Shown here: positions 7,262-8,191 of the stretch, one piece after another
Numbering within the stretch: position 1 is the stretch's first letter
How the letters are laid out: the number at the start of each line of letters is the position of its first letter
Origin: a virus
DNA: 12,484 nt
IMG/VR virus record: IMGVR_UViG_3300032401_002306
Reading direction: 5' to 3' (one strand)
Translations under genes and position numbers: made by a program
The notes under the pieces: model-generated
The model's input: only the letters and a program-made list of their open reading frames with translations
Told to the model about the DNA's origin: nothing
Database searches by the model: none

Positions 7262-8191
7262 TCAGTCGCCCTTCCCGAAGGGCTTCTTCGAAGATCCAAG
7301 CTTGCCTTTGCGCCCCAGCCCCATCCCGTACATGCCGAGCCCGGACGGCGCGTCGTCGTCAGGGACCGGCTGGATGCCCCTCCTCGGCCTCTCCCCGGCC
7401 TCCGGCGGGGCCGGGCGGGTCTCGGGCGGCCTCCGGGACTCCGTGGACGCCGGGGCACTCTCCCGTGCCTCCCGGGGGGCCCTTTGCGGCTCCGGGGCGT
7501 CGTCGCCGGACCAGGCCGACCCGAGGAGAGAGTTCTGTGGCGGAGGCGGCGGCTCGTTCCGCGGTGAGATGCGCGGGATCCGGACTTGCGTGAAGGACGT
7601 GGTGAGGAGGTCCCAGACGGTCTCCGAATAGGCGTGGCTCCCGGTCCCGAACGGCTTGTCCAGGTCGGAGACAACCCAGGTCGGGCGGCCGTAGTCGAGC
7701 CTGCAGACGAGGGCCTCCTCGAGGATTCCGGAGGCCGCCTTGTTCTTGTATCCGAGCTCGTTCAGCCTCAGGACCACGAGGTCGGGGCCCCCGGGCCCGC
7801 GACCCTTAGGATCGCCGCCGCCCATCAGGTCCTCAACGCTGTTGTACACCACCTTCGCGTCCTCCTCCAGGTTGGCCCTGGACTTGGACCCTACGAACAC
7901 GTCCCGAAGCTCTCTGTCCGAAGTTATGCGGACGTACTTTCCGTAGTGCTTCATCATGACGGCCTTGACGATGGCCCTCATGTCGATCCACGCGGCGGTG
8001 ATGAAGCACGAGCGGCCCACGCTCTTGAGGAGCGGGCTCTCCAGGTGCTGGGGCAGGAACTTGGCGGTAAGGACGTAGGACGGCATCGAGGACGCGATCC
8101 GCTTCCAGAGCGAGCACTCGCACTCGTACGTCTTGCCGTCCCTGTCGACCGTCCCGGCCCCTCCGCATGTTCCACAGGCCATGTCCGACAT
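7262..8191 (-). CDS. DnaC/IstB-like helicase-loader homologue with N-terminal Cys4 zinc ribbon, degenerate Walker A/B, and a Pro/acidic-rich disordered C-terminal tail
   Basis: CFITAAWIDMRAIV matches IstB VLFTTAAELVNEL. DLVVLRLNELGY...CRLDYGRPTWVVSDL matches IstB/DnaC DLLIIDELGY...ERYEKGSIIITSNL. No GxxGxGKT P-loop is present, and the DE of Walker B is RL/N. The N-terminus carries CGTCGG...ECEC. ATG at 8191 is 1 nt after the SNF2 TAA stop. Confidence 0.6.
   Translation of the reverse strand: MSDMACGTCGGAGTVDRDGKTYECECSLWKRIASSMPSYVLTAKFLPQHLESPLLKSVGRSCFITAAWIDMRAIVKAVMMKHYGKYVRITSDRELRDVFVGSKSRANLEEDAKVVYNSVEDLMGGGDPKGRGPGGPDLVVLRLNELGYKNKAASGILEEALVCRLDYGRPTWVVSDLDKPFGTGSHAYSETVWDLLTTSFTQVRIPRISPRNEPPPPPQNSLLGSAWSGDDAPEPQRAPREARESAPASTESRRPPETRPAPPEAGERPRRGIQPVPDDDAPSGLGMYGMGLGRKGKLGSSKKPFGKGD

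Follow-up and report, generated by a model that had tools for sequence, protein, structure and literature searches.

The gene studied here lies at positions 7262-8191 on the minus strand of a viral DNA of 12,484 nucleotides (IMG/VR record IMGVR_UViG_3300032401_002306), called the window below. Its product, which we call X, is very probably a descendant of the zinc-ribbon helicase loaders of the DnaC/DnaI type that has lost the P-loop. The AAA+ scaffold of these loaders is retained. The adjacent gene codes for a DnaB-like helicase. X probably serves this helicase as an ATP-independent loader or adaptor, perhaps coupled to the SNF2-family ATPase encoded on its other side.

The reading frame of X runs from ATG to TGA and encodes 309 amino acids plus the stop. 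The window DNA has a GC content of 65%, and long chance open reading frames (ORFs) are plentiful in its other frames. The coding frame of X is fixed by three observations. The core has a GC content at third codon positions (GC3) of 0.90 and the tail one of 0.89, similar to the neighbouring genes (0.92-0.94). There are 37 close homologues, with E values of 1e-41 to 1e-206. An exhaustive profile search retrieved 626 clusters (50% identity) at E ≤ 1e-3, 422 of them at E ≤ 1e-10. Hence the ORF is translated over its full length, tail included, and is no chance ORF. Several hundred clusters of 'hypothetical proteins' from huge-phage genomes belong to this family. A tblastn search of 50,697 phage records with X and a distant member found no cultured phage with an X-type protein; the sole match was the unannotated 485-kb record LR745208.1. 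One long ORF that overlaps the end of X is not a gene. It is initiated by TTG, spans 5746-7674 (minus strand; 642 residues), and is the frame of the DnaB-like gene stretched 414 nt upstream over the tail of X. That gene really starts with the ATG at 7260; the resulting N-terminus, 'MERILRSVIQ', is conserved in the related contig L001.

Relationship to DnaC/DnaI-type loaders

The AlphaFold2 model of X was built on a 36-sequence alignment. Its predicted local distance difference test (pLDDT) values exceed 90 over most of residues 10-210 and are 50-58 for residues 211-309. Two ribbon strands (14-17 and 20-23) and a helix (25-35) precede the core. The core consists of β1 (62-66), α1 (68-81), β2 (87-91), two helices at the site of the initiator-specific motif (ISM; 92-100 and 119-123), β3 (138-142), a helix (153-166), β4 (171-176), a further helix (190-199) and β5 (201-204). 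Structure comparison identified it as the AAA+ α/β fold of the initiator/loader clade. The highest scores were obtained with DnaA domain III (10.8-11.7) and Aquifex DnaC (10.5), followed by Streptococcus pyogenes DnaI and IstB (9.9 each) and by Staphylococcus aureus DnaI and Escherichia coli DnaC (9.7 each); generic AAA+ proteins scored 9.2 and below. The best Foldseek match in the PDB was the DnaC of the complex of DnaB, DnaC and single-stranded DNA (ssDNA; E 7.8e-5). Among viral models, Gp225 of Bacillus phage G ranked first (E 8e-8), ahead of many phage 'DnaC' proteins.

Gp225 connects X to authentic loaders. It is a protein of 261 residues (L012:18330-19112) with a ribbon, CPKCKGLGSIDIPGSNKATMCSC, that has the same CxxC...CxC pattern as X. 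Its Walker A motif ('GQQGRGKS') is intact and is accompanied by Walker B 'LLIVDNIG' and sensor 1 'VISSN'. NCBI names it 'DnaC-like helicase loader', and it passes the Pfam model IstB_IS21 (PF01695) with 29.4 bits (cutoff 24.1). The profile of the gp225 family matches Bacillus subtilis DnaI (4m4w) at 9e-17, other DnaI proteins at 1e-12 to 3e-8, Aquifex DnaC at 6e-7, E. coli DnaC at 2e-6 and IstB at 2e-3. When the X family (alignment A2) was compared with the gp225 family (A5) by hhalign, the match had Prob 96.2% and E 2.3e-9 and extended over 194 columns, covering residues 3-212 with the ribbon included. Against the single gp225 sequence, the X family gave Prob 92% and E 6e-7. A chance match is unlikely because the two share idiosyncratic motifs, such as 'AYSETVWDLL' in X and 'AYSDTVHDFI' in gp225. 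The match between X and gp225, together with the matches of gp225 itself to IstB_IS21 and DnaI, makes X a homologue of true DnaC/DnaI-type loaders.

Direct searches do not reveal this kinship. X has no match in Pfam, PHROGs or NCBIfam and fails all Pfam and NCBIfam models of DnaC and DnaI. No AAA+ model of Pfam was matched by 47 diverse members of the X family, even at E ≤ 10, and phmmer and hmmsearch runs with X against the PDB gave no loader. An hhalign comparison of X with a nine-sequence alignment of DnaC, DnaI and IstB (A4, from PDB sequences and E. coli DnaC), which is a shallow reference profile, found the right register at a Prob of 0.2-3.6%. With enterobacterial DnaC alone (A3), also a shallow profile, the Prob was 0.3% and the wrong region was aligned. 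The register places X 'PDLVVLRLNELG' with 'SPVLVLDDLG' and 'YRLD..PTWVxSD' with 'YRYNNLKSTIITTN'. The initial annotation, made by reading the sequence, had described a convincing alignment of the core with IstB and DnaC. Its register is identical to that of hhalign, but the direct match is not significant; significance comes through structure and gp225 alone. PDB matches of X to histone H3 and a paramyxovirus phosphoprotein were dismissed as compositional, arising from the low-complexity tail.

Loss of the nucleotide pocket

X has no GxxxxGK[ST] at the junction of β1 and α1. The family consensus at this site is [GAS]-x-W-x-D-[LM]-x-[APS], and hhalign pairs 'CFITAAWID---MRA' of X with 'IYLYGQQGRGKSLLE' of gp225. 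Column statistics, calculated here and below on 178 family members, give 82% for W68 and 79% for D70, with no conserved Gly, Lys or Ser/Thr. The pattern [AG]xxxxGK[ST] is present in 32 of 32 gp225-family proteins. Among 186 X-family members it was found once at the homologous site and in four others elsewhere. The single match at the P-loop site (P0039, residues 64-71, 'ASWADGKS') was judged fortuitous. The initial annotation had read the P-loop of X as completely absent, and this is borne out across the family: a conserved W-x-D stands in its place.

The structural models show how much has gone. The β1-α1 loop is one residue long in X and six residues long in a control model of gp225 made with the same pipeline, in which β1 (100-104) is followed by this loop and α1 starts at K111. 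Two helices (78-89 and 91-97) precede β1 in gp225, and both are missing from the model of X. Since the loop is reduced to one residue and the helices before β1 are gone, the nucleotide pocket of X has been dismantled, not merely mutated. Loss of the helices ahead of β1 (the α0 region) also explains why the linker between ribbon and core is about 15 residues shorter in X than in gp225, as measured by DSSP and hhalign. The 'MPxY[IV]' motif of this linker corresponds in the hhalign alignment to 'G[IV]PRKY' of gp225 and other DnaC-type loaders.

The Walker B site of X is occupied by 'DLVVLRLNELGY'. R142 takes the position of the Walker B Asp and is paired by hhalign with D174 of gp225. This position is Arg in 76% and Lys in 8% of the family, in agreement with the earlier claim that the acidic residues had been replaced. 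It is followed by Leu, by Gly or Asn (position 144) and by a variable residue (position 145, Glu in just 38%); the 'NE' of the window is peculiar to its subfamily. At the sensor-1 Asn site, β4 ends with S175-D176, and position 176 is Asp in 46%, Glu in 16% and Asn in 15%. The stretch leading to it, 'RLDYGRPTWVVSD', was paired by hhalign with 'RDNDGVPTVISSN' of gp225 and 'YRYNNLKSTIITTN' of Aquifex DnaC. No conserved Arg was found in the helix of X ('TVWDLL') that aligns with the Arg-finger helix, a placement that depends on remote alignment. A Gly/Pro-rich insertion just before β3 has lowered pLDDT and occurs in only 11 of the 178 sequences, all from the window's own subfamily.

The gp225 family itself departs from the canonical pattern. 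It keeps Walker A, an invariant 'D-N' replaces the Walker B D-[DE], and 'HDF' is found at the site of the Arg-finger 'DR[LM]' of DnaC and IstB. To judge from these motifs, the gp225 family may bind ATP without hydrolysing it. In that case, it could represent a stage between canonical loaders, for example gp192 of mycobacteriophage Bxz1 (DD, 'LIRE'), and the nucleotide-free X. Bxz1 gp192, a 'DnaC-like helicase loader' in SEA-PHAGES, has the canonical core motifs GTFGTGKT, LLLDDVG and TTN.

Conserved parts of X

The four Cys residues of the N-terminal ribbon (C6, C9, C24 and C26) are conserved in 98, 100, 99 and 94% of the family. The ribbon strands were modelled with pLDDT values of 77-94 and are aligned by hhalign to the ribbon of gp225. 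The initial annotation had rightly seen a CxxC...CxC motif in X but had taken it for an addition. The same ribbon stands ahead of an intact ATPase domain in phage G gp225, Bxz1 gp192 and their relatives. Because these P-loop-intact loaders carry it, the ribbon of X, for which zinc binding is predicted, is ancestral to the loader lineage and was inherited. In B. subtilis DnaI, the zinc module mediates binding to the helicase (PMC1636449).

Two further conserved regions lie in the core. After β2, in the ISM region, D92 and G101 are conserved within 'SDRELRDVxVGSxSR', as are N117 and D121. After the Walker B site, the motif 'YKNKAAxGxLEEA' contains N150 (99%), A152 (94%), G155 (90%) and E159 (97%), with Y148 and K149 at 67 and 73%. 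It is aligned by hhalign to 'GSKEYNTK' of gp225. In E. coli DnaC, a tetrad that binds ssDNA and is essential for loading consists of K143 and F146 in the ISM and of S177 and Y179 after Walker B (PMC8213410). The 148-160 motif of X would start in the loop equivalent to that of S177 and Y179. Beyond it, R164 (99%), P170 (86%) and W172 (100%) are conserved, and R164 matches the conserved Arg of the 'R[YD]' motif of DnaC, IstB and gp225. The pattern as a whole fits a helicase-binding, DNA-facing protein that does not bind nucleotide, because the ribbon Cys residues and the ISM and post-Walker-B positions are conserved and the ATP motifs are not.

The C-terminal tail of about 100 residues, described initially as rich in Pro, Glu, Arg, Ala and Ser, is indeed long and is disordered in the model. 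It is not featureless; a conserved motif at its end had been overlooked. Residues 211-272 are of low complexity and vary in length and sequence across the family. They are followed by 'I-x-[SP]-x-P-D-D-D-x-P-x-G-L-x-x-Y-G-x-G' and a basic end rich in Lys and Gly. D278 (81%), G284 (66%), L285 (62%), G289 (92%) and G291 (67%) are conserved, and residues 293-302 are Lys-rich. Proteins of the gp225 type have a short acidic tail without this motif. The tail of X is probably a flexible tether with a predicted docking or DNA-binding peptide at its end.

Gene neighbourhood

Seventeen loci were examined. They include two relatives of about 28% identity (L007 and L009), the 485-kb 'uncultured phage' LR745208.1 (L011) and the 381-kb contig L001; 12 are IMG/VR contigs of 36-427 kb, eleven of them at least 127 kb long. 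A DnaB-like gene lies immediately downstream of X in all 17. An SNF2 gene lies upstream on the same strand, usually abutting or overlapping X, in all 16 loci with enough upstream sequence. A gene for a CHC2 zinc-finger protein follows DnaB in 16 of 17; the sequence of the remaining locus (L021) ends before that point. The order SNF2, X, DnaB, CHC2 is found in 16 of 16 loci. We regard these four genes as a conserved replication module of huge phages, in which the DnaB-like helicase is presumed to be the client of X.

The initial annotation had proposed translational coupling from SNF2 through X to DnaB. The tight placement of these genes is conserved in 16 of 16 loci. In the window, however, the genes are separated by 1 nt at each junction (TAAcATG between SNF2 and X, TGAaATG between X and DnaB) and do not overlap. 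In relatives, 4-nt overlaps are common at these junctions.

The window SNF2 protein has PDB matches to Snf2, Sth1 and Rad54-like proteins. No TOPRIM or primase catalytic domain could be recognised in the CHC2 protein of 213 residues, which corresponds to phage G gp229 (210 residues, annotated 'DNA primase'). It may be a subunit of a primase or an accessory protein that consists of the zinc finger only. CHC2 is followed in L007 by a gene for a family A DNA polymerase (Pfam DNA_pol_A, 990 residues), with a weak HK97 capsid match nearby, and in L009 by a gene of that polymerase's length, with no Pfam match recorded.

P-loop-intact loaders have similar surroundings downstream. In phage G, gp225 abuts the DnaB-like gp226 and the CHC2 gene gp229 lies downstream; in Bxz1, gp192 adjoins the DnaB-like gp193. 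No SNF2 gene was found upstream of the loader in phage G or Bxz1 (two or three loci examined). Phage G gp224 was considered and ruled out, as it has no similarity to the window SNF2 protein and no Pfam match, and the gene upstream of Bxz1 gp192 encodes a hypothetical protein of 124 residues. Because so few P-loop-intact relatives were examined, a link between SNF2 adjacency and loss of the P-loop is anecdotal and serves as a lead only.

The DnaB-like partners of X have a deviant Walker A motif, 'A[HYF]xGELKTT', in which Leu takes the place of the Gly that almost universally precedes Lys. In gp226 ('GRKGDGKS') and gp193 ('KVGKS'), whose partner loaders have an intact P-loop, Walker A is canonical. 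The X-type loader and its partner helicase may have co-evolved, and the NTPase of this helicase may be unusual.

In several relatives, inteins with LAGLIDADG homing-endonuclease domains split the SNF2 gene, the DnaB gene or both. The copies in the window are free of inteins.

Proposed function and alternatives

Replicative-helicase loaders are textbook AAA+ ATP switches. The purpose of the ATP is still debated, as the helicase-binding domain of DnaC alone loads DnaB in vitro. Loaders that are independent of ATP are known and include λ P, T4 gp59, SPP1 G39P and bacterial DciA. A literature search for P-loop-less or pseudo-ATPase helicase loaders found no description of a nucleotide-free loader of the DnaC/DnaI type.

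Gp225 and gp192 are the closest known systems. They share with X the CxxC...CxC ribbon, the topology of the AAA+ core, a position directly upstream of a DnaB-like helicase gene with a CHC2 'primase' gene downstream, and the motifs RxRDN (R164 in X), PT..SS[ND] and 'AYS[DE]TV.D'. Unlike X, they retain the Walker B Asp and Walker A (GQQGRGKS in gp225, GTFGTGKT in gp192), and they have two additional helices ahead of β1 and a tail that is merely short and acidic. X, in turn, has no ATP motifs, a tail of about 100 residues with a basic, Gly-containing end, and an SNF2 gene upstream. DnaI (B. subtilis, Geobacillus and S. aureus) and DnaC (E. coli and Aquifex) have the same initiator-clade AAA+ fold with a conserved Arg before β4 and, as is proposed for X, loops after β2 and after Walker B that face ssDNA (PMC8213410). 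DnaI also has an N-terminal helicase-binding domain, which is zinc-dependent (PMC1636449). DnaC and DnaI are switches that bind and hydrolyse ATP, which, judging from its sequence, X could not be.

X might be likened to λ P, gp59, G39P and DciA, in that a ring of the DnaB family would be loaded or opened without ATP at the loader. The folds of these proteins are unrelated to that of X, which derives from an AAA+ loader. Degenerate AAA+ adaptors such as the clamp-loader δ subunit (1jqj_C), Orc2/Orc3 and yeast Rif2 (4bj6) belong to other clades and have other clients, and none is a loader of a replicative helicase. SNF2, X, DnaB and CHC2 may have their parallel in T4 UvsW, gp59, gp41 and gp61.

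We propose the following mechanism. The zinc-ribbon domain of X would bind the DnaB-like hexamer of the phage, as the zinc module of DnaI does, and would keep the ring open and ready for loading without ATP. With the helicase ring as their template, the degenerate AAA+ cores would grip ssDNA with the retained loops, namely the ISM 'SDRELRDV.VGS.SR' and the post-Walker-B 'YKNKAA'. The tail, with its acidic/Gly/Lys end motif, would recruit DNA or a part of the replisome, such as the SNF2 ATPase, the CHC2 primase-like protein, SSB or a polymerase. Any step driven by ATP would fall to the helicase itself or to the SNF2 motor that is always encoded beside X.

Some points weigh against this function. 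It is deduced from homology and gene order, and the equivalence of the putative DNA-binding loops of X and DnaC hangs on remote alignment. That W68, D70 and R142 fill the former nucleotide pocket is a proposal. How a nucleotide-free core would assemble is puzzling, because the AAA+ tier of DnaC needs ATP to oligomerise and to bind ssDNA. A search of IMG/VR for gp225-type loaders found phage G and one relative only, and it is silent on whether X genomes encode a second, ATP-competent loader.

Another role would also suit the gene order, in which SNF2 precedes X in the same orientation in 16 of 16 loci and usually touches or overlaps it. X might chiefly be a subunit that couples SNF2 to DnaB: SNF2 would remodel DNA (opening an origin or D-loop, or regressing a fork) and X would tether DnaB there, the three forming a loading machine like T4 UvsW, gp59 and gp41. 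This overlaps with ATP-independent loading and is compatible with it. Phage G and Bxz1, with intact P-loops, have no upstream SNF2, and the long tail of X carries a docking-type end motif that gp225 lacks. The correlation is anecdotal, however, with two or three P-loop-intact loci, physical contact is an assumption, and phage replication modules often contain SNF2 genes for other reasons. As the chief role of X we consider coupling rather unlikely. A stronger form of the idea is more speculative still. Here, a clade of huge phages would have exchanged an ATP-driven loader for a system of three parts, consisting of nucleotide-free X, an obligatorily linked SNF2 translocase that supplies energy or opens the DNA, and a DnaB whose deviant 'GELKT' Walker A has co-evolved, with X bridging SNF2 and DnaB by its ribbon and C-terminal motif.

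X could instead be a regulator or brake, that is, a dead loader that caps or sequesters the phage or host helicase until it is released, or a decoy that hijacks host DnaB. Phages reportedly target host loaders. Loaders without ATP turnover tend to remain bound and to inhibit, and ATPase mutants of DnaC stimulate DnaB poorly (PMC8213410). The strict adjacency of X to the phage's own DnaB, with its clade-specific Walker A variant, indicates a cognate pair rather than a target in the host. Conservation in X is highest in the DNA-facing loops, which a pure cap would not need. We therefore regard a brake as improbable.

It is very improbable that X has retained a non-canonical pocket for a nucleotide or some other small ligand. 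Conserved residues (W68, D70, K76 and R142) do surround the former site, and P0039 carries its P-loop-like sequence there. Against this, every phosphate-binding element is gone family-wide (Gly-rich loop, Lys-Ser/Thr pair, Walker B acids), and a β1-α1 loop of this length could not wrap around a phosphate. Similarly improbable is an origin-binding initiator of the DnaA/Orc/Cdc6 type, for all the high score of DnaA domain III. Such initiators have an AAA+ lid and a C-terminal domain for duplex DNA (DnaA domain IV or a winged helix). This reading was rejected, as the model is disordered from the end of β5 (residue 204) to the C-terminus and there is no Pfam match to Bac_DnaA or Bac_DnaA_C. An IS21-type IstB transposition helper was likewise rejected and has next to no likelihood, with no IstA transposase or inverted repeats nearby and with neighbours (SNF2 and DnaB, and PolA in relatives) that form a replication module.

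In the large and conserved X family, the scaffold of a loader persists together with its zinc module and DNA-facing loops, while the nucleotide site has been deleted. The family appears to be a natural experiment on the ATP of loaders. If X loads its DnaB, it reveals which functions of a loader need no ATP; X, DnaB and SNF2 would then be a compact system for ring opening, ssDNA capture and release without a loader ATPase. If the system of three parts is real, it would be a new loading route for a replicative helicase. The result also names, and provides a testable function for, several hundred clusters of hypothetical proteins and defines the SNF2-X-DnaB-CHC2 module.

Features of the window and of related loci

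Table 1. Coordinates of X, its parts and associated genes. Positions refer to the window unless a related locus is named.
Feature	Coordinates	Strand	Evidence
X, P-loop-less homologue of DnaC/DnaI-like helicase loaders	7262..8191	-	ORF, homologues, GC3, AlphaFold2 model
N-terminal four-Cys zinc ribbon (predicted), residues 6-26 (C6-x2-C9 ... C24-x-C26), two short β-strands	8114..8176	-	conservation, model, hhalign
Linker with 'MPxY[IV]', residues 27-61	8009..8113	-	hhalign, DSSP vs gp225
Degenerate AAA+ α/β core, residues 62-205	7577..8008	-	AlphaFold2 model
P-loop remnant, residues 66-73, 'AAWIDMRA'	7973..7996	-	hhalign, column statistics, models
Gly/Pro-rich insertion before β3, residues 125-135, 'GGDPKGRGPGG'	7787..7819	-	alignment gap counts
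Walker B remnant, residues 138-147, 'LVVLRLNELG'	7751..7780	-	hhalign, column statistics
Most conserved motif of the X family, residues 148-160, 'YKNKAASGILEEA'	7712..7750	-	column statistics, hhalign
Helix before sensor 1 and sensor-1 site, residues 164-176, 'RLDYGRPTWVVSD'	7664..7702	-	column statistics, hhalign
Disordered linker rich in P/E/R/A/S, residues 211-272	7376..7561	-	pLDDT 50-58, variable alignments, GC3 0.89
Conserved C-terminal motif, residues 273-309	7265..7375	-	column statistics, alignment
SNF2-family ATPase, 699 aa, intact motifs GLGKT and DEVH	8193..10292	-	Pfam SNF2-rel_dom 6.5e-33, Helicase_C 3.4e-19
DnaB-family replicative helicase, 504 aa	5746..7260	-	Pfam DnaB_C 3.1e-22, PHROG 19 1e-29, NCBIfam phage_DnaB
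CHC2 (DnaG-type) zinc-finger protein, 213 aa	518..1159	-	Pfam Zn_ribbon_DnaG 9.1e-6
DnaB-like genes with deviant Walker A	window 5746-7260; L001:10874-12385; L007:6902-8362; L009:5675-7156	- (window)	
Intein-bearing genes	L003:6815-9970 and 10911-13694; L011:4993-7986 and 8873-11725; L024:6787-9606		
Further vault homologues	L004:8407-11061; L005:5986-8640; L021:8749-9213 (start of one)		

Just downstream of the replication genes, the window encodes a homologue of the eukaryotic major vault protein (MVP; 2662-5322, minus strand, 886 residues). It matches Pfam MVP_shoulder (5e-26) and Vault_3 (3e-7) and, over residues ~520-818, MVP in the PDB (1e-14), and its 'cap helix' region is a long coiled coil. 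A 2023 preprint (bioRxiv 10.1101/2023.11.10.566534) had already described MVPs in phages.

Three smaller genes, all on the minus strand, are also of note. An ORF of 123 residues (5378-5749) lies directly downstream of DnaB and shares 4 nt (5746-5749) with its stop end; homologues of this ORF lie near DnaB in L001 and L021, and it matches nothing in Pfam or PHROGs. The product of 11179-12126 (315 residues) contains a C4 zinc ribbon of the topoisomerase-I type, which at 28.9 bits is below the Pfam cutoff of 32; the protein has no other assignment. The protein encoded at 10323-11120 (265 residues) has no Pfam or PHROG match; it has a lipoprotein-type signal ('...LALSIVACSGS'), a low-complexity stretch rich in Ser and Asp, and a Cys-rich pattern that recurs several times, 'C G x K [DE] C G ... 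D x C G G T ... C G [TS] C'.

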